DNA from: Alphaproteobacteria bacterium
GTDB lineage: Bacteria > Pseudomonadota > Alphaproteobacteria > Caulobacterales > Parvularculaceae
DNA length: 64,000 nt
Assembly: GCA_013151255.1 (NCBI GenBank)
Contig: JAADIQ010000120.1
Coordinates: 20,894 to 84,893 of the forward strand
Reading direction: 5' to 3'
This document shows positions 4,564-21,438 of the stretch, one piece after another. Both the position numbers and the translations under genes were made by a program. Position 1 is the first letter of the stretch. Each line of letters opens with the position of its first letter. The notes beneath the pieces were generated by a model. That model was not told where the DNA came from, searched no databases, and saw only the letters and a list, made by a program, of their open reading frames with translations.

Positions 4564-7191
4564 ATGTTGCATTTCATAGAGAAGATCCTGATCGCCTGGG
4601 CGGACGCGGCAAGGCGCGGCGGCCTGGCGCTGGCGCTCGGCTTTATCGCCGTGACGGGGTTGGCTGGCTATTACGCCGCTACCCATCTCAAGGTGAACAC
4701 CGACACCAGCGCGATGCTTGATCCGTCGCTGCCATTTCAGCTTCGCGCGGCGGCGCTGCGCGACGCCTTTCCGCAAACCAAAACCGACATCATTGTCATC
4801 GCGCGGGCAAAAACGCTGGACGAGGCGGACGCCTTCATCGCTGATTTGCGCGCCGTGGTCGCAGAAGAAAAGACCGCCTTCACCAGCGTTTTCGCCCCCG
4901 CGCAAGAGCCGTTCTTTCAGAAAAACGGGCTGCTCTATCTCAGCGAAGATGCGCTTGAAGACCGGCTGACGCAGATGTCGAAAGCCTCCGGGTTGATTGA
5001 GACGCTGATCAAAAGCCCGACCATCGGCACGCTATTCACCACCCTTGCCGGCAACGACAAACTCGCCGAGCGCTCCGACCTCGGCCAGGACACGCTGCAA
5101 CAACTCTACAAAGAGTTGAGCGTTGTCGTTGAGGCGAGCATCGAAGGAGAGGTCAGACCGTTCTCGTGGATGGGCGCGCTGGATGAGGACATCGCCGCCA
5201 GCGACAGCCATACGCGGCTCCTATACGCAACGCCGGTGCTCGACTTTAGTCGGCTGCAACCGGCCAAAGCCGGCATCGAAGTTCTGCGCGGCGAAATTGA
5301 CGCGCTGTCTCAAAAATATAGCGGCCGGGTTAAGGCCTATGTCACTGGCGATCCGGCGTTGCGGGTGGAAGAACTTGAAGCGGTCACCACCGGCATCGGC
5401 CTGTCGATGGTGCTTTCGCTGATCCTGGTGAGCCTGCTTTTACTGCTGTGTTACCGCTCCGCGGCGATGGTGGTGCTGACTTTGACCGGGCTCATCATCA
5501 CCTTGGTTTTGACGTCAGCTTTTGCAGCCGCGTTTTTGGGCGAGTTAAATCTGGTTTCCGTCGCCTTTACGGTGTTGCTGATCGGGCTGGGGCTCGATTT
5601 TGCCATTCACCTCCTCTTACATGTGCAAGAGCGCCGCGATGATGGCCAGGACAACGCCGCCGCGCTCACCGGCGCCTTGCATGAGGTTGGCCCGGCGATG
5701 GCGCTGGCCGCGCCGACAACGGCGCTGGCGTTTTTATCTTTTGTGCCGACGAAATTTGACGGCATCGCCCAGCTCGGGATGATTTCCGCCGCCGGGGTGA
5801 TTATCGCCTTTATGGTTTCCGTCACCTTCCTGCCGGCGGCGCTGGCGCGTCTTCCCGCCGCGAAAGTTAGAAAACGAAGCGGCCGCATTCGCGCGATTTT
5901 TCAATCCCTGTCGAAGGTCGCGGGACCGGTCGCGTTCGTGACCGTCCTGATCGGCATCTTTGCGCTCCTGTTAATGCCGCAGGTGCGCTTTGACGCTGAC
6001 CAAATGTCGCTGCGCAACCCCAATGCGCCCTCTGTCATCGGCTTCAATATGCTGTTTGACGACGCGGCAACCGTGCCCTACCGGCTAACCCGGCTGGTCG
6101 GCAGCGAAGCGGCCGCGCGCGAGACCTCAGCCGAGGCGGCGGCGCTGCCATCGGTCGCCAGCACCCGGTCATTGCCGGATTTTGTGCCTGAAGATCAGGA
6201 CGAAAAGCTTGAATTAATCGATTTCGCGGCGGGAACACTGGTGTTCGCCCTCGCCGCCGAGCCCGCCAGCATTGCCGGCCCACCTGCGACTGAGGGTATC
6301 GCCAAATTACAGGCCCGGCTCAAAGAAGCGTATACGGACGGCCCCGGCGCACGCCTTGCTGCACTACTCGGCGATTTGGCGGCAGTGGGCGATCCAGCCG
6401 CTATAGAGCGTCTTGAGCGGAATACCTTTCTCTATTGGCCGCAACTGGTAGAACGCCTGAGCGCGCAAATGAACGCTGATTATATTGATGTCGATAGTTT
6501 GCCCACCTCATTACGCGAGCGATATTTATCAGCGGACGGTATCTGGCGCGTCGACATTCTTCCCAAACAGGACCTACGCGACAACAATGCGCTGAACGCA
6601 TTTGTCGACGACGTCGAAAAACATTTTCCCGATCTTACCGGTGGCGCACTGCAATCGAAAAAAGCTGGTGAGGTTATTTCCAACGCGATGCTTCAGGCGA
6701 CCCTGATTGCATTCGCGGTGATCGCCGTTTTCCTCTGGCTGTTGGTGCGGCGCATCCTGACGGTGCTGCTGGTTCTGTTTCCGTTGTTGCTCGCCGCCAT
6801 CCTCACCGCTGCAACCGGCGTTTTGCTGGACGCGCCGTTTAACTACGCCAATGTCATCGTCTTGCCGTTGTTGATCGGCATCGGCGTCGATAGCGGCATC
6901 CATCTGGTCATGCGCCACGACCAGGTAACCGCCGGCGAAGGCGTCTATGGCACATCAACGCCGCGGGCAGTCCTGTTTGCGGCGCTGACCACGGTCGCCT
7001 CCTTTGGCAGCTTGATGTTGTCACCGCATCGCGGCACCGCCAGCATGGGCGAGTTGCTGACCATCGCCCTCGCGATCACCATAATTTGTACGCTGGTGGT
7101 TTTGCCGGCGGCTTTTAATTACGCCGACAAGCGCCTGAAAGACCGCCTCGAAGCCATGGCCAATCGCCGTAATATTCAGAAGAAACAATAG
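4564..7191 (+). CDS. hpnN: MMPL/RND family hopanoid transporter
   Basis: 875 aa, two TM bundles each with a GxGxD motif (GLGLDFAIH, GIGVDSGIH), large extracytoplasmic loops, hpn context. Confidence 0.85.
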   Translation: MLHFIEKILIAWADAARRGGLALALGFIAVTGLAGYYAATHLKVNTDTSAMLDPSLPFQLRAAALRDAFPQTKTDIIVIARAKTLDEADAFIADLRAVVAEEKTAFTSVFAPAQEPFFQKNGLLYLSEDALEDRLTQMSKASGLIETLIKSPTIGTLFTTLAGNDKLAERSDLGQDTLQQLYKELSVVVEASIEGEVRPFSWMGALDEDIAASDSHTRLLYATPVLDFSRLQPAKAGIEVLRGEIDALSQKYSGRVKAYVTGDPALRVEELEAVTTGIGLSMVLSLILVSLLLLLCYRSAAMVVLTLTGLIITLVLTSAFAAAFLGELNLVSVAFTVLLIGLGLDFAIHLLLHVQERRDDGQDNAAALTGALHEVGPAMALAAPTTALAFLSFVPTKFDGIAQLGMISAAGVIIAFMVSVTFLPAALARLPAAKVRKRSGRIRAIFQSLSKVAGPVAFVTVLIGIFALLLMPQVRFDADQMSLRNPNAPSVIGFNMLFDDAATVPYRLTRLVGSEAAARETSAEAAALPSVASTRSLPDFVPEDQDEKLELIDFAAGTLVFALAAEPASIAGPPATEGIAKLQARLKEAYTDGPGARLAALLGDLAAVGDPAAIERLERNTFLYWPQLVERLSAQMNADYIDVDSLPTSLRERYLSADGIWRVDILPKQDLRDNNALNAFVDDVEKHFPDLTGGALQSKKAGEVISNAMLQATLIAFAVIAVFLWLLVRRILTVLLVLFPLLLAAILTAATGVLLDAPFNYANVIVLPLLIGIGVDSGIHLVMRHDQVTAGEGVYGTSTPRAVLFAALTTVASFGSLMLSPHRGTASMGELLTIALAITIICTLVVLPAAFNYADKRLKDRLEAMANRRNIQKKQ

Positions 7192-7365
7192 ATTATCCAC
7201 CATTTCGGTGAAAATAGGTTAATCAACCTGGACGCCCTTCTGCGTGCCAAAAACCACACCCGCCATCTTATTGTCGGCATGATGCTGGAATAGCGCCGCA
7301 ATCAGACCATATAGTTTCAAATCTCAACGCTGGCCCACCGGCCGCGCATCTAACAGGTAGCATCG

Positions 7366-7998
7366 ATGTTTATGTCTCGGGTTCGCATTTTCGCCGCGCT
7401 GATCGCAGCGGCCTCAGTTACCGCGCCGGTCCAGGCGGCGGACGAGCCAGCGGCGGCGGAAGCGGAAAATTCGCGGATCGACGCTGCGGTCGCCTTTGCC
7501 AAAGCGCTGACCAATGGCGCCACCGTCGCGCTCACCGATGAAACCGCTGACGAGGCGACGCGGCTTGAGAATTTTCGCGTGGTGCTCGCCGACGGGCTCG
7601 CGCTCGACACCATCGGCAGGTTCATGCTCGGCGCGACGCGCAAAACCATGAGCGATGAACAAACCGCGCGCTATAATGCAATTTTTCCACAATATATCAC
7701 AAAACTCTACGCCGAGCAGTTTGACGAGATTGTCGGCAAGCCGCTTGAGGTGGTTGACGCAAAACAAATCGGCGCCCGCGACGTCATCGTCCGCACCCAG
7801 TTTGACCGCAAGGACAACGCGCCGATTATGGTCGACTGGCGCATACGCGAATTACGCTCCGGCGACCGCAAAGCCATCGACATCATCGTCTCCGGCGTCT
7901 CCATCATGTTAGTCAAACGCGAAGAGTTTTCATCGTTTATTGAAACCAATGGGGTCGATGCGTTGCTGGATCGGCTGGAAGTGGAAGCTGCTGGTTAA
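7366..7998 (+). CDS. hpnM: MlaC/Ttg2D family periplasmic lipid carrier (HpnM-like)
   Basis: Signal peptide, VDWR and IDIIVSGVS...REEF motifs of the MlaC family, directly after hpnN. Confidence 0.75.
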   Translation: MFMSRVRIFAALIAAASVTAPVQAADEPAAAEAENSRIDAAVAFAKALTNGATVALTDETADEATRLENFRVVLADGLALDTIGRFMLGATRKTMSDEQTARYNAIFPQYITKLYAEQFDEIVGKPLEVVDAKQIGARDVIVRTQFDRKDNAPIMVDWRIRELRSGDRKAIDIIVSGVSIMLVKREEFSSFIETNGVDALLDRLEVEAAG

Positions 7999-8001
7999 AG
8001 G

Positions 8002-8261
8002 TGGGGATTGGGGAATAGGGATTAGAGTCTGTTCCAAACGAGCTGAGTCATTTCAATCAGTTAGCACCGGCGCCCCCTCCCTCGTGTCATCACCGGCGGA
8101 CTTGTTCCGGCAATCCAGAGCTGCAAATAACGGAAAATTTCTGGATCACCGGAACAAGTCCGGTGATGACAGCGCTGATAATGCGTACTTCTTTTTGAGT
8201 CAGACGCTTAGGGAATAGGGGTTAGACCTCGTGAACTAATCCCTAAAACCTAATCCCTAAC
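8002..8261. repeat. Heptamer (TAGGGAW-like) short tandem tracts flanking the convergent intergenic region
   Basis: TGGGGAT-TGGGGAA-TAGGGAT-TAG at 8002-8025, TAGGGAA-TAGGGGT-TAG at 8209-8225, and the inverse-orientation tract CTAATCC-CTAAAAC-CTAATCC-CTAA at 8236-8260. Confidence 0.7.
8085..8171. repeat. REP/RPE-like palindromic element, family B
   Basis: Arms TGTCATCACCGG(CGG)ACTTGTTCCGGCAATCCAGA and TCTGGATCACCGGAACAAGTCCGGTGATGACA. The left arm has a 3-bp insertion. Lies between convergent genes. Confidence 0.85.
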
Positions 8262-9149
8262 TCAGCTCTTCCGCTCAAACACAAAATCCGCGGCGCCTTT
8301 CAGCGGCGCGGCGACATCCCCGAACCGGTCCAAATGCGCTTTCGCGCTTTCCACCAGCTCAGCCGCTTTGGCTTTGGCGCCGTCCATGCCGAACAGTTTG
8401 ATGAAGGTCGCCTTGTCCATTTCGCTGTCCTGCCCGACCGGCTTGCCGAGTGCTTGCGCGTCGCTGGTCTCATCGAGGATGTCGTCGACAATCTGGAAGG
8501 CAAGACCGAGGTCTTCCGCATAGGCGCTGAGCGCTGCGATCTCGTCAGTCGACCCGCCGCCCACAATACCGCCGCCGACCGCGCCAAAGCGGATGAGGGC
8601 GCCGGTTTTCAGGCGCTGTAATTGCGTGACGCCGTCAAGGTCGAAATTCTTTTGCTCGGCATAGATGTCAATCATCTGGCCGCCGACCATGCCTTCCTTG
8701 CCGCTTGCGCGGGCAAGCTCTAGCGCCAGCGCGCAACGGATATTGGCGTCGGGATGGGTTTCTTCCTCCGCCAGAATTTCAAACGCCTGGGTCAACAACG
8801 CATCGCCTGCAAGGATCGCGGTGGCGTCGTCATATTTCTTATGCACCGAAGGCCGCCCGCGTCGCAGGTCGCTATCATCCATCGCCGGCAAATCATCATG
8901 GATGAGGCTGTAACAATGGATCATTTCCACCGCGCAGCTGACCCGAACCGAGCGCACGCGCGGGCAATCAAACATATCCGCCGCGCCAACCACCAGAAAC
9001 GGACGCAGCCTTTTGCCGCCATCAAGCGCGCCCCAGCGCATCGCGTCCGCCACCCGGCCGAGCGGGCCGTCCTGGGTCGGCAGGAATTCATCGAGCGCAG
9101 TCTCCACCAGCGCGGCGATTTCCTTAATGGTTTGAGCAAATACAGACAT
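8262..9149 (-). CDS. ispA: Farnesyl diphosphate synthase / geranyltranstransferase
   Basis: GGKRLRP, SLIHDDLPAMDDSDLRRG, GQMID, KTGAL and FQIVDDILD motifs. Confidence 0.95.
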   Translation of the reverse strand: MSVFAQTIKEIAALVETALDEFLPTQDGPLGRVADAMRWGALDGGKRLRPFLVVGAADMFDCPRVRSVRVSCAVEMIHCYSLIHDDLPAMDDSDLRRGRPSVHKKYDDATAILAGDALLTQAFEILAEEETHPDANIRCALALELARASGKEGMVGGQMIDIYAEQKNFDLDGVTQLQRLKTGALIRFGAVGGGIVGGGSTDEIAALSAYAEDLGLAFQIVDDILDETSDAQALGKPVGQDSEMDKATFIKLFGMDGAKAKAAELVESAKAHLDRFGDVAAPLKGAADFVFERKS

Positions 9150-9168
9150 GACTGCCTTCAAACAGTAA

Positions 9169-9196
9169 AACGAGCGCGGCTATTAGCGCGCTCGTT
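9169..9196 (-). terminator. Probable intrinsic terminator
   Basis: Perfect 10-bp stem AACGAGCGCG/CGCGCTCGTT with an 8-nt loop. On the minus strand it is followed by T-rich sequence, just downstream of the 9222-9884 ORF. Confidence 0.55.
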
Positions 9197-9221
9197 AGGC
9201 CGGCTCAACCCGCTACGCAAA

Positions 9222-9884
9222 TTAGTGGCGGCGTGGCGTGACAAAGCCCGACCCGTCGCAGTCCAGGCATGTCCGCGCGATTAAACCGCGCTTGCCCTTG
9301 CCGCCGCATTCTTCACAAATTTCTTGAGACGCCGACGCGCCGAGAAAACGCGACAACATGTCTAACTTAACGCCCGGCTCTGAACTGGGCGCCTTGTTGG
9401 TCGCGAATGCGCGCGCCGCCGCCATTTTCGCCGCCGGGAACGCCTCCACCATCGACGCCTGATCGCCGCTCAGCCCATGCAGCGCCACCATCAGATCACG
9501 CCGCCACGCCTCCAGCACCAGCGCGAACTGGCCATCATCATAGTTGCCGGTAATCTGAAGCCCGGCCATCAAGAACAGATCCTCACCTTCCAAAGCGACG
9601 ACGCTGATATGCAAATTGCGGTTGAGCCCCTCAACCGCCTGCACGGAGAGCGAGAATCCGACAAACCGCGCCAGAAAGCCAATTTCCACCACTTTGCCGG
9701 ACCCGGCCGCAGACTGCATTAATGCGACAACGAAATTGACCCCGTTTTCCTGGACGCCATAGACCTTTAGCGGCCCGTCTTCTCCCAATGTATCAACCGC
9801 TCCATAGGCGTTTTTCAGCGCCGCAGCGATCTTCGAAAGCGGCCATGATCCCGCACTGGCGCCATTAGAAAACATCTTGAACAT
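9222..9884 (-). CDS. YbjN-like domain protein with a C-terminal CxxCxGxG zinc-finger pair
   Basis: The N-terminal alpha/beta region resembles YbjN/CesT-like chaperones. The C-terminus is CEECGGKG...CLDCDGSG. Confidence 0.6.
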   Translation of the reverse strand: MFKMFSNGASAGSWPLSKIAAALKNAYGAVDTLGEDGPLKVYGVQENGVNFVVALMQSAAGSGKVVEIGFLARFVGFSLSVQAVEGLNRNLHISVVALEGEDLFLMAGLQITGNYDDGQFALVLEAWRRDLMVALHGLSGDQASMVEAFPAAKMAAARAFATNKAPSSEPGVKLDMLSRFLGASASQEICEECGGKGKRGLIARTCLDCDGSGFVTPRRH

Positions 9885-10122
9885 GAAAACCCCTTAACCC
9901 ATTCCCCGAAGGCCAACGCTACACGAGCGCCACGCCCAGGCCAAGCGGCATCGCCAGAGTTGAGGGCTGCAATGTTGGACAAAAATATGTGATCGCAGGT
10001 GTTTTGCACTGCAGCGCCAGAACCGCTATATCACCCGGAATCAACCGGGCGGCTAAGGTTGTCGGCCTCGCGGTCGCGTGAAATAACACGTAAAGTAATG
10101 TTCTGGGTTAAGAGGGGGCGCT

Positions 10123-11121
10123 ATGCCTGCTACCGAAAAGCTGAATGTCCTGCTTGCGCAACCACGCGGCTTCTGCGCCGGCGTTGAGCGGGCGATAGAC
10201 ATTGTCGAGCGGGCGCTGGAGAAATTCGGCGCGCCGGTCTATGTCCGCCACGAGATTGTCCACAACAAATTCGTCGTCGATACGCTGCGCGCGCGCGGCG
10301 CCATCTTCGTTGAGGAAGTCGATGAAGTCCCGACAGGCGCGGTCACCGTGTTTTCCGCCCATGGCGTTGCAAAAAAAGTTGAGAACGGCGCGCTTGAACG
10401 AATGCTGGACGTAATTGACGCAACCTGTCCGCTGGTCACCAAAGTGCACAAAGAAGGCCGCCGCTACGCCGAGAGGGGCTACGACATCGTTCTCATCGGT
10501 CATATCGGTCATCCGGAAGTCGAAGGCACGCTCGGGCAAATTCCGGGCACCGTTCATGTTCTTTCCGAGGCCAACGAAGTCGAAGCTTTAAGCGTCACCG
10601 ATGAAAACCGCGTCGCCTTCGTCACCCAGACCACCCTGTCGGTGAACGACACCAAAGACGTCATCGCCGCGCTCAAAACACGTTTTCCTAATATTATCGG
10701 CCCCGACACCAGAGACATCTGTTACGCCACGCAAAACCGCCAAACCGCGGTTATCGCCATGGCCAAGGAAGTTGATCTGTTGCTGGTGGTCGGCGCCCAT
10801 AATTCCTCAAACTCAAACCGCCTTCGCGAAATCGGCGAGAACAATCACATTCCGAGCTATCTGATCGAAGATGCTTCGATGTTTGACCCGGCCTGGCTTG
10901 AGGGCGTGCACAGAGTTGGTATTACCGCCGGCGCCTCAGCGCCGGAGAGCCTGGTTCAAGACACCATCGCACGGCTGCGCAATTATCGTGATGTCTCGGT
11001 CTCGACCCTCGACGGGGTTGAAGAAAATGTGCATTTCAAGCTGCCGCGCGAGCTGGCTGATGTTCCGCGGCCGGAAGATGCAATGAAAGCCTGGGCCGTT
11101 AGTCCCGTTGAACACGCCTGA
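10123..11121 (+). CDS. ispH: 4-hydroxy-3-methylbut-2-enyl diphosphate reductase
   Basis: [41 protein letters not shown] and SSNSNRL motifs. Confidence 0.97.
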
Positions 11122-11151
11122 AGTAACAATAAGAACTGTCTGGAGACGAAC

Positions 11152-12306
11152 ATGTCCGTATCATTACACCAGCAAGCCCGCGTCGGCGCCTATGTGGTCA
11201 AGCAGACCCTTATGGGCCGCAAGAAATATCCGCTGGTGCTGTTTCTTGAACCGCTGTTTCGCTGCAACCTCGCCTGCCCGGGCTGCGGTAAAATCGATTA
11301 CCCCGCGCCGATCCTCAACAAGCGTCTGTCGGTCCAGGAATGCTTTGATGCGGTTGATGAATGCGGCGCGCCAGTTGTCGCCATCCCCGGCGGCGAGCCT
11401 TTAATCCATAAGGATATTGGTGAAATCGTCGAGGGCATCGTGGCGCGTAAAAAGTTCGTCTCGCTATGCACCAATGCGCTGCTCCTGGAAAAGAAACTCG
11501 ACCTGTTCAAACCGTCGCCGTTTTTGTTTTTCTCCGTTCACTTAGATGGGCTTGAAGAAGAACACGACCACGCGGTCGACCAAAAAGGCACCTTCAAAAT
11601 TGCCGTTAAAGCGATTAAGGCGGCGCAAGCGCGCGGCTTTCAGGTCAATGTCAACGCCACGATTTTTGACAACATGACCGCGAAACAAGTTGCCGATTAT
11701 CTCGATTTCGCCACCGACCTTGGCGTCAACATTACGATCTCGCCGGGCTACGCCTATGAGCGCGCTGAAGACGCCGACCACTTCTTGTCACGCGAGAAAA
11801 CCAAACAGCTGTTCCGCGATATTTTCAAAATCGGCAAAGACCGCAATCGCCTATGGAACTTCTCGCACTCGTCTTTGTTTCTCGATTTCCTGGCCGGCAA
11901 CCAGGAATATAAATGCACGCCATGGGGCTCGCCCACGCGCAGCGTCTTTGGCTGGCAAAAACCCTGCTACCTGCTTGGCGAGGGTTATGTGTCGTCGTTC
12001 AAGGAACTGATGGAAACGACCGACTGGGACCAATACGGCACCGGCGCTTATGAGAAATGTTCCAACTGCATGGCCCATTGCGGTTATGAGCCGACGGCGG
12101 CGATGGATGCGGTTAAAAATCCGCTGAAAATGTTTAAACTGCCGAACATGTTCAAGATCAAAACCGAAGGCCCAATGGCGCCGGAGATCAATCTTTCCAA
12201 CGCCCGGCCGGCCGTGGACGTCCACGAAAAGCTGGTGGAAGCGGAAATGTCAAAGATCGCAGCTGAGAAAAAGGCGGCCAAACAACGGGACGAGGTCGCG
12301 GCGTAG
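11152..12306 (+). CDS. hpnH: Adenosyl-hopene transferase (radical SAM)
   Basis: LEPLFRCNLACPGCGKI CxxxCxxC motif, GNQEYKCTPWG, CYLL and CSNCMAHCGYE, all typical of HpnH. Confidence 0.93.
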   Translation: MSVSLHQQARVGAYVVKQTLMGRKKYPLVLFLEPLFRCNLACPGCGKIDYPAPILNKRLSVQECFDAVDECGAPVVAIPGGEPLIHKDIGEIVEGIVARKKFVSLCTNALLLEKKLDLFKPSPFLFFSVHLDGLEEEHDHAVDQKGTFKIAVKAIKAAQARGFQVNVNATIFDNMTAKQVADYLDFATDLGVNITISPGYAYERAEDADHFLSREKTKQLFRDIFKIGKDRNRLWNFSHSSLFLDFLAGNQEYKCTPWGSPTRSVFGWQKPCYLLGEGYVSSFKELMETTDWDQYGTGAYEKCSNCMAHCGYEPTAAMDAVKNPLKMFKLPNMFKIKTEGPMAPEINLSNARPAVDVHEKLVEAEMSKIAAEKKAAKQRDEVAA

Positions 12307-12954
12307 AGTTTTTAACGCCGCCGAGCTATCGGCGCCGAGCTTCATCAAAGCCGGAAACTGTTTGGGATCACGCATCGCCGCGCCCAATGTCGCCAGTATG
12401 CGCGTCGATCCGTCTGGCGCAACGGCGCCCAGCGCCGCCGGCGGCAAAGCCCTGTCCGCCGGATCGGCAATCGCGCGGATCGCAAGGAAAGGAACGCCGG
12501 CGCTTGCCGCTGCACGCGCCGCCCCATGGCTTTCCATATCAACGCCAAGCGCATGATGGCTGCGATAGAGCGCGGCTTTTTTCTCGATGCTTTCGATGAT
12601 ATCATCAGCGCCGAACAAAGCGCCAATCTTCGCCGTCGCGGCGGCAGGCTCCTCCGCGATTGTATCCAATAAACGCCGGTCGCTTTCACAGACTTGCCCA
12701 TCGCCGTAGAGAACCCGGTCGCCAATAATCAGATCGCCCGACGCGAGCGATGGATCAAGCCCGCCGGAAACACCGACGCTGACAATCGCGGCAGCGCCCT
12801 CACCGCAAAATTCCCGCGCAATCTCTTCCGCACGCGCAGCATTGGCGCCGGAAACCCCAACACGGATTTTCGGTGCGTCAAGCACACGCAAAATAACCTG
12901 CGCTTCAGATTTCAATCCGCAAATGACGGCGATGAAGTTGTCTACATCTCTCAT
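12250..12954 (-). CDS. hpnG: Hopanoid-associated nucleosidase/phosphorylase
   Basis: PNP/MTAN fold motifs GVSGGLDP, VDMES and IRAIADP; hpn context; ATGA overlap with hpnE. Confidence 0.88.
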   Translation of the reverse strand: MRDVDNFIAVICGLKSEAQVILRVLDAPKIRVGVSGANAARAEEIAREFCGEGAAAIVSVGVSGGLDPSLASGDLIIGDRVLYGDGQVCESDRRLLDTIAEEPAAATAKIGALFGADDIIESIEKKAALYRSHHALGVDMESHGAARAAASAGVPFLAIRAIADPADRALPPAALGAVAPDGSTRILATLGAAMRDPKQFPALMKLGADSSAALKTLRRDLVPLFGRLFLSCDL

Positions 12955-14222
12955 GCAATCGCACGCATCGCCAACGCCGCCGCCTTGTTCCCCGACCTTA
13001 TCGAGCCCTCAATCGTCGCCGGCACCCCGGTGTCGGTGTGATCGCCGGCGAGGAACAAGTTACGATATTCGGTTTCAGCTTTTAGCCGTCTCGCGGCGCC
13101 GGCTGGCGACTGGTCCGGTGTGGCGCGCTTTTCGCGGATTACCCGCACCCGTTCATAGTCCGTGTCGCCCAATTCGAGCGCAGTTTGAACCTCGCGCCAA
13201 ACCTGGTTTACGACATCATCATTGGGACGGTCATCGGCGCCGATGGCGTTTGAAGCGGAAGTTGTGACGCTGATCACGTCGTCGCGCACAAACACCCACT
13301 GCGCCAGCGACGACACAAGTGCGATGAATGGCCCCTCGCCTAACGCCTTCATGGGAGCCGCCGCGCCTAACCGGTAATGTATATTCAAAATGCTGGCGTC
13401 ATCGTTTGGCGGGTCCAACTGCGGCATGATTTGTTTCAATCGCGATGGCGGGATCGCGAAGATTACCTGATCGCCCGCCTCCAGCGTCACCGTCTCATCA
13501 ACAAAAGAAAGGCTGGTCACCGCGCCGCCTTCCATCCACGCGCTGCGCAATCTCGCGCCGAAACGTATGACCCCGCCATTAGATTCGATAAATTTCACCG
13601 CCGGATCAATGAACGCCGGCCCGAGGCCTTGTTTGGCGACCAACGGCGTTGAGGCTTGCCCACCCAGCAGGAAAGTCTCGCGAATGACGCTCCATAACAG
13701 CCGCGCCTGGCCGCGCTCCGGCGTGGTGTTCAACACCGCCAACGTCAATGGCTCCCAAAACCGTTCAAACAACACGCCGTTGCGGTCAATGGCGCCGGCA
13801 ACCGTCTTGTCGGCACCCGCAAGCGCGACGCCAGCAGCTTTTGCGTAGTCCCAAACCTTTGTATCGGGTACGCGAGAATGTTTGCCGAACACCCAGAACG
13901 GGATCGGCCCCTCATTCATCCGCACCGTCCAGCGCTTGCCGGTTTTCACATCGACAAAAGGATAGGCGGCAAAAGGCGGGCCTGTCAGCGCGTCAACCGA
14001 ACCGATCGTATCAAGGAACGCCAGTGCAGACTTGTTGCCCGACATGATCAGATGATTGCCATTGTCGATATCACGCTCGAGATGTTTGTCGTAAAAAGAG
14101 CGGCAGCGCCCGCCCGCTTGTCTCGCGCTTTCATATATGATTACGCGATGTCCGCTCTCAACCAAGCGAACGCCAGCCGCCAGCCCCGCCAGTCCGGCGC
14201 CAATGATATGTACACGGCTCAT
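12951..14222 (-). CDS. hpnE: Hydroxysqualene dehydroxylase
   Basis: FAD motif GAGLAG, GGRCRS, IDNGNHL, EKRAT and TGVPATIEGSIRSG. Confidence 0.93.
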   Translation of the reverse strand: MSRVHIIGAGLAGLAAGVRLVESGHRVIIYESARQAGGRCRSFYDKHLERDIDNGNHLIMSGNKSALAFLDTIGSVDALTGPPFAAYPFVDVKTGKRWTVRMNEGPIPFWVFGKHSRVPDTKVWDYAKAAGVALAGADKTVAGAIDRNGVLFERFWEPLTLAVLNTTPERGQARLLWSVIRETFLLGGQASTPLVAKQGLGPAFIDPAVKFIESNGGVIRFGARLRSAWMEGGAVTSLSFVDETVTLEAGDQVIFAIPPSRLKQIMPQLDPPNDDASILNIHYRLGAAAPMKALGEGPFIALVSSLAQWVFVRDDVISVTTSASNAIGADDRPNDDVVNQVWREVQTALELGDTDYERVRVIREKRATPDQSPAGAARRLKAETEYRNLFLAGDHTDTGVPATIEGSIRSGNKAAALAMRAIA

Positions 14223-14253
14223 TTAAAAAGGCCTGAAAAAAAAGCCACAAAAA

Positions 14254-15150
14254 TTAACCCGCCCACGATCTTGGCGCCTTCAGCCTCGGGGCGACGAACC
14301 AGCGCGCGGCGATCCTTAGTTTCTGGAATTTTGAAATCTCGGGCTTGGGCTGGCCATTGTCCCAGCCGCGCGCCGTCATCATGTTGAGATAGTGTTCATA
14401 AACACCCATCATCAGGAGGGCGGGCCGCAGCATTCTCCAGTCCAGATGAACAAGCGCTGCACGCGTCGCTGCAAATTTTTTGCGCGCTACCGCGGCTAAT
14501 TCTTCACGCACTTGCGGCAGGCCGGGGGCCATCGCGATAGTATCCGGACGGAGCGGGCAGTCATATTTTTTGAGCAGCTCCGCCGGCAGGTAAAGCCGGC
14601 CTTCGCCCGCATCTTCTTCGACATCACGCAATATGTTGGTGAGCTGTAGCGCGTCGCCCAGCGACAAGGCGAAATCCTCCGCCGCCTGGCTTTGCGGCGC
14701 GCCAAACACCGGCATCGACAACATGCCAACGGCGCCGGCGGCGCGGCGGGTATAGGCGAGAAGCCCGTCCATCGTCGGCGCGATAATCGGACCAGCCGCA
14801 TCCATCTCCATGCCCTCGATCACCAGGATGAATTCCCCCTTGGGCAAATCAAAGTCTCTGATATGCTCCAACAGCGCAACACCGGTCGGCGTTGTCGGCG
14901 CGCCGCGATAGAGCCGCTCAATTTCCATCCGCCAGGCGCCGAGCCCGGATTGTTTTTCCTGAAGCGTTCCGGGCTCATCGGCGATATCATCAACCTCGCG
15001 ACAAAAGGCGTAAATCGCATACATCGCTTCGCGCCGCTCTCGTGACAGGATGCGCATGCCGGCGCCAAACGAGGTGCCGGATTTCGCAACCGTCGCCTGC
15101 GCATGGCGGCGCGCCTCGGCAAGGGATATGGCCGGCGCGGCAACGCTCAT
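14254..15150 (-). CDS. hpnD: Presqualene diphosphate synthase
   Basis: SGTSF, YAFCREVDDIAD, GMEMD and LQLTNILRDVEEDA motifs. Confidence 0.93.
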   Translation of the reverse strand: MSVAAPAISLAEARRHAQATVAKSGTSFGAGMRILSRERREAMYAIYAFCREVDDIADEPGTLQEKQSGLGAWRMEIERLYRGAPTTPTGVALLEHIRDFDLPKGEFILVIEGMEMDAAGPIIAPTMDGLLAYTRRAAGAVGMLSMPVFGAPQSQAAEDFALSLGDALQLTNILRDVEEDAGEGRLYLPAELLKKYDCPLRPDTIAMAPGLPQVREELAAVARKKFAATRAALVHLDWRMLRPALLMMGVYEHYLNMMTARGWDNGQPKPEISKFQKLRIAARWFVAPRLKAPRSWAG

Positions 15151-16058
15151 CGCCTTGCGCCCCGACCAGCGGCGAAGAAGCCGCCGACGACGCCGCGCAA
15201 CCCGGCCGAGGCAAGGTCGAGCTTGGTCAACGCCACGCGTGTCGCCAACGGATCGCCCTGCCGCAACAGCACAATCAACCGGTCAGCGACATTGACAATC
15301 ACCGCCGATTCCATCGCCAGATGCCGCGATTGCAGCGCCCTTGGCAATTCGCGTGCGTGCACCATCAACTCATCGCAACAGATCAGCATGCGGTCCACCA
15401 CCCGGCGCAGCCCCGGCGTCAGCGCATCGCCATCAACATCTTCAATAGACGCACCCTCTTGCGCCATCCAGTCGCCGATTAAATACACCCGGTCGAGAGC
15501 GCGCCGGTCATCGCCGCAATCCTGCAGATGATTGACCACCTGCAATACCGTGCAGAGCGCATCAGAATAAACATAACCGCTTTTGTCCTCGCCATGGAGG
15601 TCAAGAAGATAACGCCCGACAGGATTTGCCGACAGCTCGCAATAGCCGAGCAATTCGTCCCAGCTCGCATAGCGATTTTTTTGCGCATCCTGCACGAAGG
15701 CGGCGACAAGGTCGGAGCCGTGCTTTGTGGTCACCCCGGTCGCGCTAAGGCTCTCGCGCAAGGCATGGGCCTTGGCGAGGCGCGGGTCATCGTGCGCCTC
15801 ACCGCGCAGCGCCGCATCGAAGGCGCGCAATCGCGAGATTTTATCTTCCGCCGCCAGCGCCGGATTGTCGGCAATATCATCAATCGCGCGCGCAAACGCA
15901 TAATAGGTCGCAACATGCGGGCGCAGATGTTTCGGCAACAGGAACGAGCCGACGGGAAAGTTTTCATCGCCCGCGCCCTTGCCGGACGGCGTCTCGCTCG
16001 TCTCGCCCGGGGCGTCGGGCGTTGCGGTTTCCGGCGCTGTTTTCAAAGTCGCAGACAT
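15147..16058 (-). CDS. hpnC: Squalene synthase HpnC
   Basis: ENFPVGS, YAFARAIDDIAD, SANPVGR and CTVLQVVNHLQD motifs. Start taken at MSATLK (an upstream ATG is possible). Confidence 0.92.
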   Translation of the reverse strand: MSATLKTAPETATPDAPGETSETPSGKGAGDENFPVGSFLLPKHLRPHVATYYAFARAIDDIADNPALAAEDKISRLRAFDAALRGEAHDDPRLAKAHALRESLSATGVTTKHGSDLVAAFVQDAQKNRYASWDELLGYCELSANPVGRYLLDLHGEDKSGYVYSDALCTVLQVVNHLQDCGDDRRALDRVYLIGDWMAQEGASIEDVDGDALTPGLRRVVDRMLICCDELMVHARELPRALQSRHLAMESAVIVNVADRLIVLLRQGDPLATRVALTKLDLASAGLRGVVGGFFAAGRGARR

Positions 16059-16155
16059 GGCCTGCACATTACGCATTTTGGCTGGTAATCCAAGCGCTTT
16101 GCCTGCGCTGAATACGCCCTTTGCGGGCGCGGCGGCGGCGCTGTAAGCAAGAGCC

Positions 16156-16329
16156 ATGAGCCTTGTCCTGATTGCCGCCGCCGCCTTCCTCGCCTGGATT
16201 TACCTCGCCCCGCCATGGGAAGCAGCCTTTTTTCTTACCGCGACGGGGCTATATACGCTGATGACCGTGGCTTCCGCCTTGCGGCACTGGCGCGGCCAAG
16301 ACGGGCAATGGAAAGGGCGAACTTATTAG
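16156..16329 (+). pseudogene. hpnB: 57-aa ORF resembling the N- and C-termini of glycosyltransferase HpnB fused in frame, with the catalytic domain missing
   Basis: Below the ORF-track cutoff. Manual translation: MSLVLIAAAAFLAWIYLAPPWEAAFFLTATGLYTLMTVASALRHWRGQDGQWKGRTY. The WxYL N-terminal helix and the LYTxMTxxSAxRHWRGxxGxWKGRxY tail are recalled features of HpnB. Adjacent to hpnC. Confidence 0.7.
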
Positions 16330-16762: not shown

Positions 16763-17251
16763 CTACCAATCGAGCTTTTTCGCATAGGCTTTTGTGACGA
16801 TAAAGACTGCGCAAGGCGCATCATGGATGAAATGCGTTGATGCGCTGCCCTGGAACAGGGCGCCCCAAAACCCTCGCTGGTGCGAACCGATGACAATCAA
16901 ATCCGCATCGACTTCCGCTGCGAAATCCGACACTGCCTGAGAGGCGTCGCCATCGAGAATAGTGGCGCTGGCGCCCGGCGCATATTTATCCACCAACTCG
17001 CTCAAACGTTCCTGACACACTACGCGCCCTTCTCGATGCATATCAAAGGAGGTTCGCCCGGCGACAGCGCCGGTGACGCCCATATCGGTGGCGAAGGCGG
17101 ATGTCTCAACACTAAGCGGCGGCCAAACGCTCACGGCACGGAGGTTTGCGCCGTTCTTATGCGCGAAGCTATCGGCAACCCGCAAAACATCCGAAGCCAA
17201 TTCATCTGAAACATCAACTGCGGCGATAATACGTTTAAATTGCATGTGCAT
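16763..17251 (-). CDS. Universal stress protein
   Basis: FKRIIAAVD, DADLIVIGSHQRG...GS and APCAVFIV, the UspA signatures. Confidence 0.9.
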   Translation of the reverse strand: MHMQFKRIIAAVDVSDELASDVLRVADSFAHKNGANLRAVSVWPPLSVETSAFATDMGVTGAVAGRTSFDMHREGRVVCQERLSELVDKYAPGASATILDGDASQAVSDFAAEVDADLIVIGSHQRGFWGALFQGSASTHFIHDAPCAVFIVTKAYAKKLDW

Positions 17252-17346
17252 TTCTCCCTGCCTGCTCTAATCCAGAGATGGGCGCAAATAACGCGCATCC
17301 CATGAGACAAGACGCCGCAATTATCTCGGTCCAGGCTATCGCATCA

Positions 17347-18216
17347 CTACGGCGCCAGCACCCGTTTCGGGTGACGGCCATCAACATAGCCCATAAACGG
17401 CGAACATATGGAGTAGCCGAGCAGCTCCTGAACCCGCTCGGGAAGCGCCCGCGCCGCCTCGGGTGGAACCGCCAGGGACATGTTCTCCAGCTGCCGCGTC
17501 CAGCCCGGGCAGTATTGCGGGGTTATAATCAGCCGCGCCGCCGCGGACCGGTTGGCCCCGCCGCGATGCCACAAGGTTCCTTTCGCCAGCGTCAAAGAAC
17601 CGGCCGGCGCTGCCAGCTTCATCGCATCTTCGCGGGCGCCGGGATCGCCGTCGCGGCTTTCAAGGCGTGAGAAATCAGTTTCCGCGACCGCGCCTTCAAT
17701 ATGATCCTCTGGCCAGAGATGACTGCCCGGTAAAATTTCCGTGGCGCCGTTATCATCCGTTGTCGCATCAATCGCCCAAAACGCGCTGACCCCAAGCGAC
17801 GGACGCGGGCGCGGCCATTGGTAATGGCTGTCGTCGAAATGCCAGGGTTGCGCGGTCTCGCCTGGTTGCAAGTTAATCGCCAAACACGCCGACAACAGGC
17901 AATCGCGCCCTAAATCTGCTTCAACGAAGCGCAACGCCAGCGGATGCATGACCAGCTCAGCCAGTACCGGCGACTTCGCCGCCAGCGCGTAGACACGGTT
18001 TGATTTGCGCCCTTCAAATTCGTTGCGCCCGGTGACATTTGCTCCAAGATAGGGCGCCAGCGCTGTTCGAATTTCGTCGATCTGGGCGCCCGTCAGCACT
18101 TTTTCAAAAGTGATATAACCGTCGCGGTCAAACTGACTGCGCCAGTCCTCCATCGAGCGGCCTTTCAGCCAGGGCGCAATAGCGTCATCATTTTGGCGCG
18201 CAGTTTCAACGTTCAT
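17347..18216 (-). CDS. Phytanoyl-CoA dioxygenase family Fe(II)/2-oxoglutarate enzyme
   Basis: QPWHFDD (HxD), NGATEILPGSH and LWHRGGAN motifs. Confidence 0.9.
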   Translation of the reverse strand: MNVETARQNDDAIAPWLKGRSMEDWRSQFDRDGYITFEKVLTGAQIDEIRTALAPYLGANVTGRNEFEGRKSNRVYALAAKSPVLAELVMHPLALRFVEADLGRDCLLSACLAINLQPGETAQPWHFDDSHYQWPRPRPSLGVSAFWAIDATTDDNGATEILPGSHLWPEDHIEGAVAETDFSRLESRDGDPGAREDAMKLAAPAGSLTLAKGTLWHRGGANRSAAARLIITPQYCPGWTRQLENMSLAVPPEAARALPERVQELLGYSICSPFMGYVDGRHPKRVLAP

Positions 18217-18258
18217 AAATACCCTCTCGGCTACATGATCGCGCAGCGCAACGATAAT

Positions 18259-19248
18259 TCAAACCGGTTTCAGCAGTTGTTTGTGTTGCATCCAGTCAAG
18301 TGTTTTCGCCATCGCAGCGTCAACATCGCCCGCCGCCCAGCCGAGCTCGCGGCGCGCTTTTTCGCTGGAGAATGAAACCTGCCTGCCGGCCAGGCGCACG
18401 CCGGTCAACGGCGCCTTTGGCGGCTTGCCGGTAATGGCGGCGATCAGCCTGGTGTCAATCACCCCGGCGGCGAGCGCGACAGCGTAGGGCATCCGGGTTT
18501 TCGGCATCGCCCGTCCGGTCAGCTTTTCCAGCCTGTCGAGAAGTTGTTTCATGGCAATGTTTTCACCACCAAGCAGATAACGCTCTCCGACCTTGCCTTT
18601 GTCGCGAGCGGCGATCAGCCCTTCGGCCAGACTTTCAACGGGAACAAAATTCAAGATGCAATCGATGTAAGCGGGGGTGGCGCCATTGGCGAAGTCGAGG
18701 ATCATTTTCGTCGGAGGCGTCAGGCTGTCGTCGCCCGGCCCCAGCGGTTCAGTCGGCAGCGCAATGACCGCGTCCAGCCCCTCGCCCACCGCCGCCTCGA
18801 CGATGCGCTCCGCCGCCAGCTTTGAGCGCGGATAGGGCCCAAGCATATCGTCAGGGGCAAGCCGCACGGTTTCATCGGCAGTAGACAGACCGATGGGCGT
18901 CGCGCGCCCAACCAGCGTCGTCAGGCTCGAACAATGGACAAGGCGGCGGACGCCAGCCTTCATTACCGCACCAACAACAAGCTCCGTTCCAAGACGATTG
19001 ACGCGGTCAAAGACGCCCGCATCACGCGTCCAAAGCTGGGCGTTGCCCGCGAGATGAAACACCGTTGCAACACCGGTCATGGCGCTGTGCAAAGCGTCGA
19101 TATCAGTGATGGAGCCCTGCACATCATCCGGATGCACAGCAGCAGCAATATCGAAACTGCGCACGGTCTCGCCGCACGCCCGCAAACTTTCGACTAGCTG
19201 CTTGCCGACAAAGCCGGCGCCGCCAGTGACCAGCGTAATACCACTCAC
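18259..19248 (-). CDS. NAD-dependent epimerase/reductase, HpnA/dihydroflavonol-reductase-like
   Basis: TGGAGFVG, VFHLAG, YPRSK (YxxxK), GPGD and GERYLLGGEN motifs. GTG start overlaps the upstream TGA. Confidence 0.85.
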   Translation of the reverse strand: MSGITLVTGGAGFVGKQLVESLRACGETVRSFDIAAAVHPDDVQGSITDIDALHSAMTGVATVFHLAGNAQLWTRDAGVFDRVNRLGTELVVGAVMKAGVRRLVHCSSLTTLVGRATPIGLSTADETVRLAPDDMLGPYPRSKLAAERIVEAAVGEGLDAVIALPTEPLGPGDDSLTPPTKMILDFANGATPAYIDCILNFVPVESLAEGLIAARDKGKVGERYLLGGENIAMKQLLDRLEKLTGRAMPKTRMPYAVALAAGVIDTRLIAAITGKPPKAPLTGVRLAGRQVSFSSEKARRELGWAAGDVDAAMAKTLDWMQHKQLLKPV

Positions 19249-20324
19249 GCTAGCGCCCGGCAGACCAACAGGCCCTCATCGGTGACCGATCCAGCGACCA
19301 ACCCGTCCGGGGTTTGCACCGCCACCGTCGCGGCGCTGAACAGTTTGCCCGACGGGTCGTCAAAGAGGATTTGCAGCGCGCCGGTTTTTGAGTTCGCCTT
19401 AACGATCCGCGACGGCGCCTTGCCGATGCCAAGCTTGCGGTTGAGCGCCAGGCGCACCATCGACGGATGCACCGCCGCAACGATGCCGCCATCATCGGCT
19501 AAGGTCAAATTATCAGGACCGCCAGGCAGTTTGATACGCACCTTCTCCTCCAGCACGCCAGACTGTTCCATCAGGAAAATCAACGCGTTCTCACGCGTCG
19601 CCGCGACCACCACCTCGCCGCTCAAAGTTTGAGCAAGCCCATTGGCAAAAGCCGCACGCTCAAAAAGCCGGGCGCCGCTACCGTCGACAACGCCGCTGCG
19701 CTTCATGCGGAAGATATCCTCCACGCCGGCCATCCAGTTGCAGGCGTTATGGTCAAAGCTGGTATAAGTCCCGCGGGACGTCGCTAAAACATCATTGGCG
19801 TTGCAGGGAACGCTGTCTTTTTCCGCCACCACCAAGGCGCCGCCGGCGCCAATACGCTGCAAATGCGGCTCCATCTTCCATCCGCGTCCGGAGCGATGAT
19901 AGGCGCGGTTGATAAAGACTAACTCGCGGTTCGCCGGATCATAAGAAATTCCATGCGGCCGGAGCCCACCGGCGATTTCGCCGGGCGCAATCAACGGCTT
20001 TGCTTTGACGGACGCAGTCTCGACTGCAAATATCTCCGGCAACGAAACCTCATAGACGCCGCCTTCGGGTATTTTGCGGTTGCGCTTTCGCGCCGCACGC
20101 TCAACGCTGCGACGATTATAGACCGATACAAATAACCGGCCGGCGGCGGGCTCGATGGCGAAATCTTCCGCGCCGCGCAACTTCGCGCCGGTGACGGCGT
20201 CAACCAGCGCCACCCGACGGCATTGCGCATCGGAATATTGCGCCGGACCGATTTGCGCCCGCCCGCAAGCGCTGAGCGCGCCGAGCCCCAAGGCAACCAG
20301 AAATTTAAGCCGCCGTCTCCGCAT
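19245..20324 (-). CDS. Paraoxonase/arylesterase-like six-bladed beta-propeller lipoprotein
   Basis: GAEDF, LRPHGIS, NANDV, FANG and GPDNL are PON-type Ca-binding motifs. Signal MRRRRLKFLVALGLGALSAC carries a lipobox. Confidence 0.75.
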   Translation of the reverse strand: MRRRRLKFLVALGLGALSACGRAQIGPAQYSDAQCRRVALVDAVTGAKLRGAEDFAIEPAAGRLFVSVYNRRSVERAARKRNRKIPEGGVYEVSLPEIFAVETASVKAKPLIAPGEIAGGLRPHGISYDPANRELVFINRAYHRSGRGWKMEPHLQRIGAGGALVVAEKDSVPCNANDVLATSRGTYTSFDHNACNWMAGVEDIFRMKRSGVVDGSGARLFERAAFANGLAQTLSGEVVVAATRENALIFLMEQSGVLEEKVRIKLPGGPDNLTLADDGGIVAAVHPSMVRLALNRKLGIGKAPSRIVKANSKTGALQILFDDPSGKLFSAATVAVQTPDGLVAGSVTDEGLLVCRALA

Positions 20325-21438
20325 CCCGCGTCCCCTCGCCGCTTTGCGTGTCCTCGCCACCGGGACGGTCATAGCCCCATTTTTCAATCCAGTGGCCAAG
20401 CCGCGCTTCAACTTTCGCCGCCGCGTCATCGCTATAATCGAATTTATTCTTCTCAAAGCTTTTCACCGAAGCAAGATAACGCTCAAACGCGCCGCGGCTG
20501 GTCTCAAATCCTGGCAGCCCCAAGGCTCCATAGATTTTCTCAACCGCTTGCATGGGGCTCGCGTCAAGCTCGTCATAACGCAGCTCAACCAGCTGTTCAG
20601 AAGACACCGATTGCACATCACTCTCATAGGCGCGCATCATCCGGTCATAGACCGACAAAACCGTCTCATCGATATCGACATGGTCATAGCTCTGGAGCGC
20701 CAGCTCCTTCAAGAGTTTGGTGTAAAAATTCCGCATCGAGACGAATACGTCATAAGGGTTGCGGTGAATGTGGACAAATTTGGCGCCCGGAAACATCTCG
20801 CGCAACATCGCCAGCCTTCCGGTATAGACCGGGTTTTTAATCAGCAGCGGCTTTTCGCCCTGATGCAGATAAAGCTTGCGCAGGAAATACGTAAACTGTT
20901 TGCGCCAGCCGCGAATATCCGCCGTTGAACATCCGTCGAAAAACAGCCCGCGCTGAACATTTTCAGCGAAGGCGCGCGGAAAATAGATGCCGTGATAGAA
21001 CGAGACATCAGACATATTGGCGATGGCGATTTCATCTTCTTGCGGGCTGTCCGGGCGGACCGGAATATTGTCGATATAACGATGCTCGGGAAGCGCGCGC
21101 TCCAGCAACGGATTGAAGACTTTGGCGAGACCAAACAAATCCCAGGGCAGCCCCGTCGCCACCGGCGGCACGAAACCCCAGGCGCCGCTCTGGCACATGA
21201 TGTTGTAGAGATGGGTCGTGCCCGAGCGCCAATGGCCAAGGATGAAAACCGGCGCCGGCATATCCTCAAGCGACGGCAGGCGGCGCTCCATCGCCAGCTT
21301 CTCCGCGGTTGAAAACGGCCAGCGCACGGCCGACGCCAGGCCGACAAGCGCGCCCTCGCCGACCCGGTCCGGCAGGCCCGAGCGTCCGACCACCGTCGCC
21401 AGCGTTGCGAGATTGGCTCCACATAAGGGATGCGCCAT
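20305..21438 (-). CDS. PAPS-dependent sulfotransferase (Sulfotransfer_3-type)
   Basis: 5'-PSB loop FILGHWRSGTTHL, LLIKNP, and 3'-PB motif IHRNPYDVFVS. Confidence 0.9.
   Translation of the reverse strand: MAHPLCGANLATLATVVGRSGLPDRVGEGALVGLASAVRWPFSTAEKLAMERRLPSLEDMPAPVFILGHWRSGTTHLYNIMCQSGAWGFVPPVATGLPWDLFGLAKVFNPLLERALPEHRYIDNIPVRPDSPQEDEIAIANMSDVSFYHGIYFPRAFAENVQRGLFFDGCSTADIRGWRKQFTYFLRKLYLHQGEKPLLIKNPVYTGRLAMLREMFPGAKFVHIHRNPYDVFVSMRNFYTKLLKELALQSYDHVDIDETVLSVYDRMMRAYESDVQSVSSEQLVELRYDELDASPMQAVEKIYGALGLPGFETSRGAFERYLASVKSFEKNKFDYSDDAAAKVEARLGHWIEKWGYDRPGGEDTQSGEGTRDAETAA

Follow-up and report, generated by a model that had tools for sequence, protein, structure and literature searches.

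A hopanoid gene cluster without shc and an unlinked squalene-hopene cyclase of a deep lineage in marine Parvularculaceae

The window analyzed here is a 64-kb stretch of DNA, positions 20894-84893 of contig C61, from a marine Parvularculaceae metagenome-assembled genome (MAG) of the Marinicaulis/Hyphococcus type (G000; 3.12 Mb, 131 contigs, 92% complete, 1.4% contamination). It carries a hopanoid (hpn) gene cluster from which the gene for squalene-hopene cyclase (SHC), named shc or hpnF, is missing. A single intact SHC gene is found on another contig of the same genome, C110, and its product is referred to as P0001. The window very probably holds an ordinary hopanoid biosynthesis and export cluster, with the cyclase gene simply located outside it. 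The arrangement without shc is old, widespread and functional-looking. Genes of the window were called from an open reading frame (ORF) listing and NCBIfam scans, with Pfam used for selected proteins; coordinates and profile scores are collected in Table 1.

The genes hpnC, hpnD and hpnE run straight into hpnG through a 4-bp overlap, as the original prediction had claimed; the gene calls and the sequence agree on this. The minus strand reads GATTGCATGAGAGATG across the junction (the same junction is also given as GCATGAGAG), and from this reading the stop codon TGA of hpnE and the start codon ATG of hpnG share the four letters ATGA (12954-12951). Examples of the canonical alphaproteobacterial hpn cluster are those of Rhodopseudomonas palustris TIE-1, Zymomonas mobilis (ZMO0869-0875), Bradyrhizobium and Methylobacterium. 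Gene order was compared with 11 clusters of the canonical layout (L095 and L141-L150). The canonical cluster matches the window in gene content, order and orientation (hpnC-hpnD-hpnE...hpnG, a convergent hpnH-ispH pair, and ispA and hpnN close by), but shc sits between hpnE and hpnG where the window has only the overlap. In eight of ten canonical-clade stretches, and in the cluster of the sister-family genome G028 (L095), hpnD or hpnE is followed by shc, hpnG and the convergent hpnH-ispH pair; the other two (L143 and L148) show shc-hpnG and hpnH-ispH with no match to hpnC, hpnD or hpnE in the fetched stretch. Because shc stands between these two genes in the outgroup clusters and the order is otherwise the same, the junction was correctly described as the position where shc normally sits.

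No cyclase was found within the window. A tblastn search with the genome's own SHC gave nothing better than E = 2.6, and therefore no cyclase is encoded in the 64 kb, as had also been claimed. Remnants of shc were looked for with tblastn, using five SHCs from both of the cyclase clades described below, in the window and in 12 hpn clusters of the same genus at E values up to 5. Nothing was found in the hpnE-hpnG interval, and the best score anywhere was E 0.07. There is thus no trace of an in-place deletion of shc in the window or in the 12 clusters. The profile scans likewise bear out the claim that the squalene, precursor, tailoring and export genes are intact, with the qualification that the hpnM-like gene falls below the TIGR03481 cut-off.

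A search of the G000 assembly with TIGR01507 gave a single match, on contig C110 (686 bits, cut-off 431), in an open frame without stops, and P0001 is the only SHC-family sequence in the assembly. The original prediction had allowed for a cyclase gene elsewhere in the genome, and one intact copy is there, half of what it had named as telling against a cyclase-free pathway. On the oxidosqualene cyclase and tetrahymanol synthase models, P0001 stays far under the cut-offs. Its alignment with the SHC of Alicyclobacillus acidocaldarius, whose crystal structures (PDB 1GSZ/2SQC/3SQC) served as the structural reference, covers the full length (572 bits). The motif DTDDTA at residues 388-393 aligns to D374-V-D376-D377-T-A, and the protein has nine loose QW motifs (Q-x(2-5)-G-x-W); a stricter 16-residue QW pattern gave no match on P0001, and the count refers to the loose form alone. 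At active-site and channel positions, 23 of the 27 residues compared are identical. These are D374, D376 and D377, D313, D447, H451, Y495, W169, W312, W489, F365, G600 and F601, as well as I261, Q262, P263, Y267, E93, R127, F166, F434, C435 and F437; F605, Y609 and Y612 are conserved too. The differences are T41C, E45Q, V174L and Y420F. The two enzymes thus have the same DxDDTA acid centre and nearly all cavity residues in common, but P0001 has an insertion of ~27 residues before the C-terminal FxxxYxxY segment.

The fragmented state of the G000 assembly and its 1.4% contamination raise the question of an artefact, in which C110 would come from another organism or shc would have been lost from the cluster by misassembly. 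The probability of this is close to negligible, since several observations contradict it: i) in four closed genomes of the genus (G009, G012, G013 and G024) both loci lie on one chromosome, with shc and hpnE 577 kb to 1.5 Mb apart; ii) hpnE and hpnG are adjacent in all 12 genus clusters; iii) C110 fits the genome in G+C content (57.5% against 57.7%) and in tetranucleotide profile; and iv) the genes flanking shc on C110 are 85-94% identical to Marinicaulis MAG genes. In a further relative, G020, shc and hpnE are on different contigs.

The cyclase and the cluster are kept together across the genus. An SHC match and a top hpnE match were obtained in each of the 24 genomes of the genus that were searched, and both genes are absent from 15 genomes sampled from four other families of the order. 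In 23 of the 24 the SHC exceeds the family cut-off in a single piece, and the G017 copy is divided between two contigs; 21 have a complete hpnE above its cut-off, and contig ends truncate hpnE in G002, G008 and G010. The closest shc loci belong to Marinicaulis, Hyphococcus, Amphiplicatus and other Parvularculaceae MAGs and isolates, with 73-94% protein identity. Among 80 shc loci of relatives, fetched with flanks of up to 8 kb, 79 have no hpn gene nearby. The neighbors are instead a malonyl-CoA synthase gene (matB, 52 loci) and a gene for a Blh-type protein of the metallo-beta-lactamase fold (blh, 48 loci), and this second location of shc beside matB and blh is conserved. The hpn clusters are equally constant. 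In 12 of 12 genus clusters the order is that of the window, hpnC-D-E-G, convergent hpnH-ispH, a gene for a 220-amino-acid protein, and ispA; the hpnM-like gene and hpnN follow wherever the fetched stretch reaches that far. None of the 12 contains shc, hpnG is intact in every one of them, and the hpnE-hpnG spacing is 0-680 bp. The junction had been judged old and settled. That judgment is supported: the layout without shc recurs in all 12 genus genomes examined and in three further families of the class, and no remnant of shc turned up.

Two irregular SHC copies were seen in the genus. A single TAA is counted inside the SHC match of G005 (C7:13163-14983), and the split copy of G017 lies on contigs C57 and C53; in each case this is either an assembly effect or a real break.

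Selection on the genes was estimated from the ratio of nonsynonymous to synonymous substitution rates (dN/dS). For shc the ratio is 0.07-0.11 against close kin at an unsaturated dS of 0.3-0.5, and the gene is under strong purifying selection. The same measure, suggested with the original prediction for hpnH and hpnG, gave low values in both cases (0.02-0.07 and 0.12-0.17). Their direction agrees with that of shc, but dS is near or at saturation for both genes. The cyclase search over the whole genome and its relatives, suggested at the same time, returned the intact SHC on C110 and an SHC in all 24 genomes.

The reading originally favored was that of a cyclase-free pathway, an undescribed membrane lipid system. 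HpnH and HpnG would modify squalene or another non-hopanoid triterpene, HpnN and HpnM would export the product, and the cyclase on C110 would be irrelevant to the cluster. The absence of shc from the cluster and from the whole window, and the translationally coupled hpnE-hpnG junction, are what this reading would expect. It does not account for an intact SHC under strong purifying selection in the same genome, with its catalytic residues kept, nor for the company it keeps: SHC and hpn genes occur together in all 24 genus genomes and in all 11 genomes of the P0001 clade, and both are lacking in the 15 genomes sampled from four other families of the order. HpnH, moreover, is a strong member of the adenosyl-hopene transferase equivalog (533 bits) and is 60-70% identical to the HpnH of canonical clusters that contain shc (87-93% to that of genus relatives). 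A cyclase-free pathway is therefore highly improbable, and the earlier preference for it is not upheld.

The relation between cyclase and cluster layout was followed in 401 alphaproteobacterial genomes drawn evenly across the class. Of these, 124 encode an SHC and 123 an HpnH, and the two sets nearly coincide. Identity of the SHCs to P0001 is bimodal, at 63-71% in ten genomes of five families and 34-43% in the other 108. The canonical in-cluster SHCs thus share only 34-43% of their residues with the sole SHC of G000, which is encoded elsewhere. In a tree rooted on the Alicyclobacillus enzyme, the alphaproteobacterial SHCs form two clades, each with 100% support in the Shimodaira-Hasegawa-like approximate likelihood ratio test, and the clades are ~1.8 substitutions per site apart. 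The 108 genomes of the canonical clade have shc within 10 kb of hpnH in 85 cases, farther away on the same contig in 6 (>79 kb), on a different contig in 16, and no hpnH in 1. In the P0001 clade (11 genomes including G000) shc is never within 10 kb of hpnH; it is farther away on the same contig in 3 (127 kb to 1.27 Mb) and on a different contig in 8, and every genome has hpnH. Since shc lies >79 kb from hpnH in at least 6 of the 108 canonical-clade genomes, linkage of the two genes does not define an hpn cluster. Around hpnH, the shc-less hpnC-D-E-G and hpnH-ispH arrangement of the window recurs in seven genomes (three families) among the ten others of the P0001 clade; the remaining three have hpnH alone, or hpnH with hpnG, at the hpnH locus.

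There is one exception to this pattern. In a MAG labelled 'Rhizomicrobium sp.' (DATJRP010000079.1; L079:5002-14580), a P0001-clade SHC, 71% identical to P0001, lies between hpnE and hpnG. It is the sole locus found with a P0001-clade SHC inside an hpn cluster. Its flanking genes are more distant from those of the window (hpnC, hpnD and hpnE ~42% identical, hpnH 58%), and it looks like a swap of cyclase lineage in place. Because one stands there, P0001-clade SHCs do work within standard hpn clusters. A further genome (G197) has, in addition to its P0001-clade copy, an extra and very divergent SHC (L126; G197:C16:187347-189317). The extra protein is 50% identical to P0001, its terminal branch is 1.35 substitutions per site long, and its gene is likewise unlinked to hpnH.

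The depth of the split makes it conceivable that the unlinked SHC represents a distinct lineage with a changed product, for example mostly diplopterol or another penta- or tetracyclic triterpene, and that the pathway leads to non-standard extended triterpenoids. The ~1.8 substitutions per site and the low identity that separate the clade from canonical alphaproteobacterial SHCs point in this direction. So do T41C and E45Q, which we take to lie in the water network that governs the final deprotonation in the A. acidocaldarius enzyme. However, the residues that line the cavity and form the acid centre match the Alicyclobacillus hopene cyclase, and it is the canonical clade that differs from it at more of them (E93K, R127N, Q262F/Y, Y267N/F, F437H and H451R); at the positions checked, the P0001 clade is the nearer of the two. 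About half of the P0001 clade keeps E45. The hopene cyclase equivalog is passed by a wide margin, in contrast to the tetrahymanol synthase and oxidosqualene cyclase models, and the 'Rhizomicrobium' locus has such an enzyme inside a standard hpn cluster. A changed product is accordingly very unlikely. Both the Alicyclobacillus SHC and the canonical alphaproteobacterial SHCs make hopene, and with an active site nearer to the former, the simplest expectation is that the P0001 clade makes hopene as well.

How the two layouts arose was addressed with a quick HpnH tree. It does not mirror the deep SHC split; inner branches are short, the layouts interleave, and at least two layout changes are forced by well-supported branches. 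The tree gives no support to simple vertical co-inheritance of HpnH with the SHC lineage. As far as these trees go, the pattern fits some exchange of the cyclase lineage with respect to the other cluster genes. The shc gene may have been excised from between hpnE and hpnG; alternatively, it may never have entered that position, or a different SHC lineage may have taken its place. A 2026 preprint, 'Origin and transport of bacterial hopanoids', describes SHC and HpnH homologues in Parvularculaceae and places the roots of its trees for SHC and HpnH in marine alphaproteobacteria, with Parvularculaceae among them, apart from a 'terrestrial alphaproteobacteria' clade (bioRxiv 10.1101/2025.07.29.667474). 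If this root is right, 'never inserted' is as likely as 'excised'. The split between Parvularculaceae and terrestrial groups in the preprint matches the two SHC clades found here. Gene linkage is not mentioned in the parts of it that were consulted (bioRxiv 10.1101/2025.07.29.667474); the link between SHC clade and cluster layout comes from the present analysis.

Unlinked cyclases were already known before this work. Z. mobilis has hpnF/shc1 in its cluster and an unlinked shc2 (ZMO1548). Knock-down of either SHC is harmless, but knock-down of hpnC, hpnH or hpnI is not, an indication that the pathway can draw on an SHC encoded elsewhere (PMC7657623). The shc2 gene lies away from the hpn cluster as in G000, but it is a second and apparently redundant copy, whereas G000 has no other cyclase. 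That the P0001 clade is the clade of ZMO1548 is a candidate relationship and a lead to follow. A 2025 survey set apart a 'second group' of Shc proteins, with under 40% similarity to the enzyme of R. palustris, encoded outside the cluster, forming a separate clade and excluded from the counts (PMC12583986). In location and in clade separation the SHC of G000 resembles this group, but it is the only cyclase of its genome. The P0001 clade is likely the 'second group' itself.

In the pathway proposed for this organism, IspH and IspA would supply farnesyl diphosphate, and HpnC, HpnD and HpnE would convert it to squalene. The unlinked SHC on C110 would cyclize squalene to diploptene and diplopterol. 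HpnH would then add a 5'-deoxyadenosyl group to give adenosylhopane, and HpnG would remove the adenine to give ribosylhopane, leading to bacteriohopanetetrol. HpnN, together with the MlaC-like HpnM-type protein, would carry hopanoids to the outer membrane. These steps are assigned from family membership and from the established functions of HpnC, HpnD, HpnE, SHC, HpnH, HpnG and HpnN. Compared with the canonical cluster, G000 (at 92% completeness) has no match to hpnI, only a chance-level match of 18.9 bits to hpnJ, and, in place of a full hpnB, a C-terminal remnant of 35.9 bits. The glucosaminyl and cyclitol-ether branch of hopanoid tailoring thus seems to be absent. With hpnI, hpnJ and a full hpnB not found, no aminotriol or cyclitol-ether branch can be claimed; the searches did not extend to hpnO, hpnP, hpnR and hpnK. 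The predicted products are accordingly C30 hopanoids and simple bacteriohopanepolyols such as bacteriohopanetetrol.

Four points weigh against the interpretation of an ordinary cluster served by an outlying cyclase: i) hopene is the product predicted for the P0001 clade from its sequences, and no lipid data for this organism or any member of its family were found in the literature; ii) T41C and E45Q, near the termination site, depart from the Alicyclobacillus enzyme; iii) G000 is incomplete and in many pieces, and the linkage in G000 itself is therefore deduced from its relatives; and iv) Hyphococcus, Marinicaulis and Amphiplicatus have been listed as genera without shc (PMC12583986), which shows that the shc assignment is not universally accepted. 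That listing is contradicted by named isolates of Hyphococcus and Amphiplicatus, which carry full-length SHCs with scores of ~700 bits on TIGR01507 (Table 1). It is probably a result of discarding the 'second group' of Shc proteins.

Table 1. Coordinates of the hopanoid genes in the window, of the unlinked cyclase and of SHC genes in named isolates
Feature	Position	Strand	Evidence or source
ATGA overlap of hpnE stop and hpnG start, place of shc in canonical clusters	12951-12954	-	sequence read
Squalene-hopene cyclase P0001 (672 amino acids)	C110:16050-18065		TIGR01507 699.4 bits, cut-off 431.1, model positions 16-612 of 640
hpnC, squalene synthase (hydroxysqualene-forming step)	15147-16157	-	TIGR03464 273.8 bits, cut-off 250.5
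hpnD, presqualene diphosphate synthase	14254-15150	-	TIGR03465 281.4 bits, cut-off 278.6
hpnE, hydroxysqualene dehydroxylase	12951-14222	-	TIGR03467 351.8 bits, cut-off 283
hpnG, hopanoid-associated nucleosidase/phosphorylase	12250-12954	-	TIGR03468 189.1 bits, cut-off 187.1 (narrowly over)
hpnH, radical-SAM adenosyl-hopene transferase	11152-12306	+	TIGR03470 533 bits, cut-off 225
ispH, 4-hydroxy-3-methylbut-2-enyl diphosphate (HMBPP) reductase	10123-11121	+	NF002188 483.7 bits, cut-off 420
220-amino-acid protein between ispA and ispH	9222-9884	-	no Pfam family; weak DnaJ zinc-finger match
ispA, farnesyl diphosphate synthase	8262-9161	-	NF045485 320 bits, cut-off 275
hpnM-like periplasmic lipid-binding protein, MlaC family	7366-7998	+	TIGR03481 74 bits, below cut-off 160
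hpnN, RND-type hopanoid transporter	4564-7191	+	TIGR03480 768.6 bits, cut-off 751.9
Stretch like the C-terminal end of hpnB	16138-16326 (C61:37031-37219)	+	TIGR03469 positions 322-384, 35.9 bits, E 7.9e-9
SHC, Hyphococcus aureus KCTC 62394	L015:8001-10037
SHC, H. luteus SY-3-19	L028:8001-10037
SHC, Amphiplicatus metriothermophilus CGMCC 1.12710	L057:8001-9995

Several further features of the cluster were recorded. HpnN scores 554 bits on a newer equivalog, NF052374, below its cut-off of 1100; relatives in the genus have hpnN orthologues at this end of their clusters. The hpnM-like protein matches the Pfam family MlaC (PF05494) with 102 bits and adjoins hpnN in relatives too. The 220-amino-acid protein has a C-terminal, zinc-finger-like tail of the form CxxCxGxG...CxxCxGxG, read as CEECGGKGK...CLDCDGSG. 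It is kept at the same place in all 12 genus clusters with 58-71% identity, and at the thresholds applied the clusters of other families gave no match to it. The convergent hpnH (plus strand) and hpnG (minus strand) overlap by 57 bp at their 3' ends (12250-12306), and a convergent overlap of 51 bp is found in at least five genus relatives (L085, L088, L089, L090 and L092). The hpnB-like remnant is carried by a 57-amino-acid ORF (16156-16329, plus strand) that diverges from hpnC. Beside the cluster, at 16763-21438 on the minus strand, lie genes for a universal stress protein, a PhyH-type iron/2-oxoglutarate-dependent dioxygenase, an HpnA-like protein, a 403-amino-acid protein without a family, and a sulfotransferase. 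The HpnA-like protein belongs to the NAD epimerase/3-beta-hydroxysteroid dehydrogenase family (TIGR03466 301 bits, below the cut-off of 368). Judging from family assignments, this HpnA-like reductase, the dioxygenase and the sulfotransferase are possible hopanoid tailoring enzymes.

A membrane-lipid pathway that decorates an uncyclized triterpene would, if true, have meant a new class of lipid. With a cyclase that is both present and conserved, no such class is proposed. What the analysis shows is that, in Alphaproteobacteria, the layout of the hopanoid cluster follows the cyclase lineage, one of two deep ones, found in the genome. Thus, the lack of shc in an hpn cluster should not be read as a lack of hopanoids. 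A broader view can be offered only tentatively, as a possibility less probable than its opposite: that the shc-less cluster and an unlinked, deep-clade SHC close to the Alicyclobacillus enzyme form a distinct and ancient hopanoid system of several mostly marine families, possibly representing the ancestral layout before a later insertion of shc. If so, the cultured Hyphococcus and Amphiplicatus strains would be unrecognized marine sources of bacteriohopanepolyols. Marine hopanoid producers such as Hyphococcus, Marinicaulis and Amphiplicatus are probably counted too low in gene-based surveys that leave out the divergent cyclase lineage, and this bears on the assignment of sedimentary hopanes to their source organisms.

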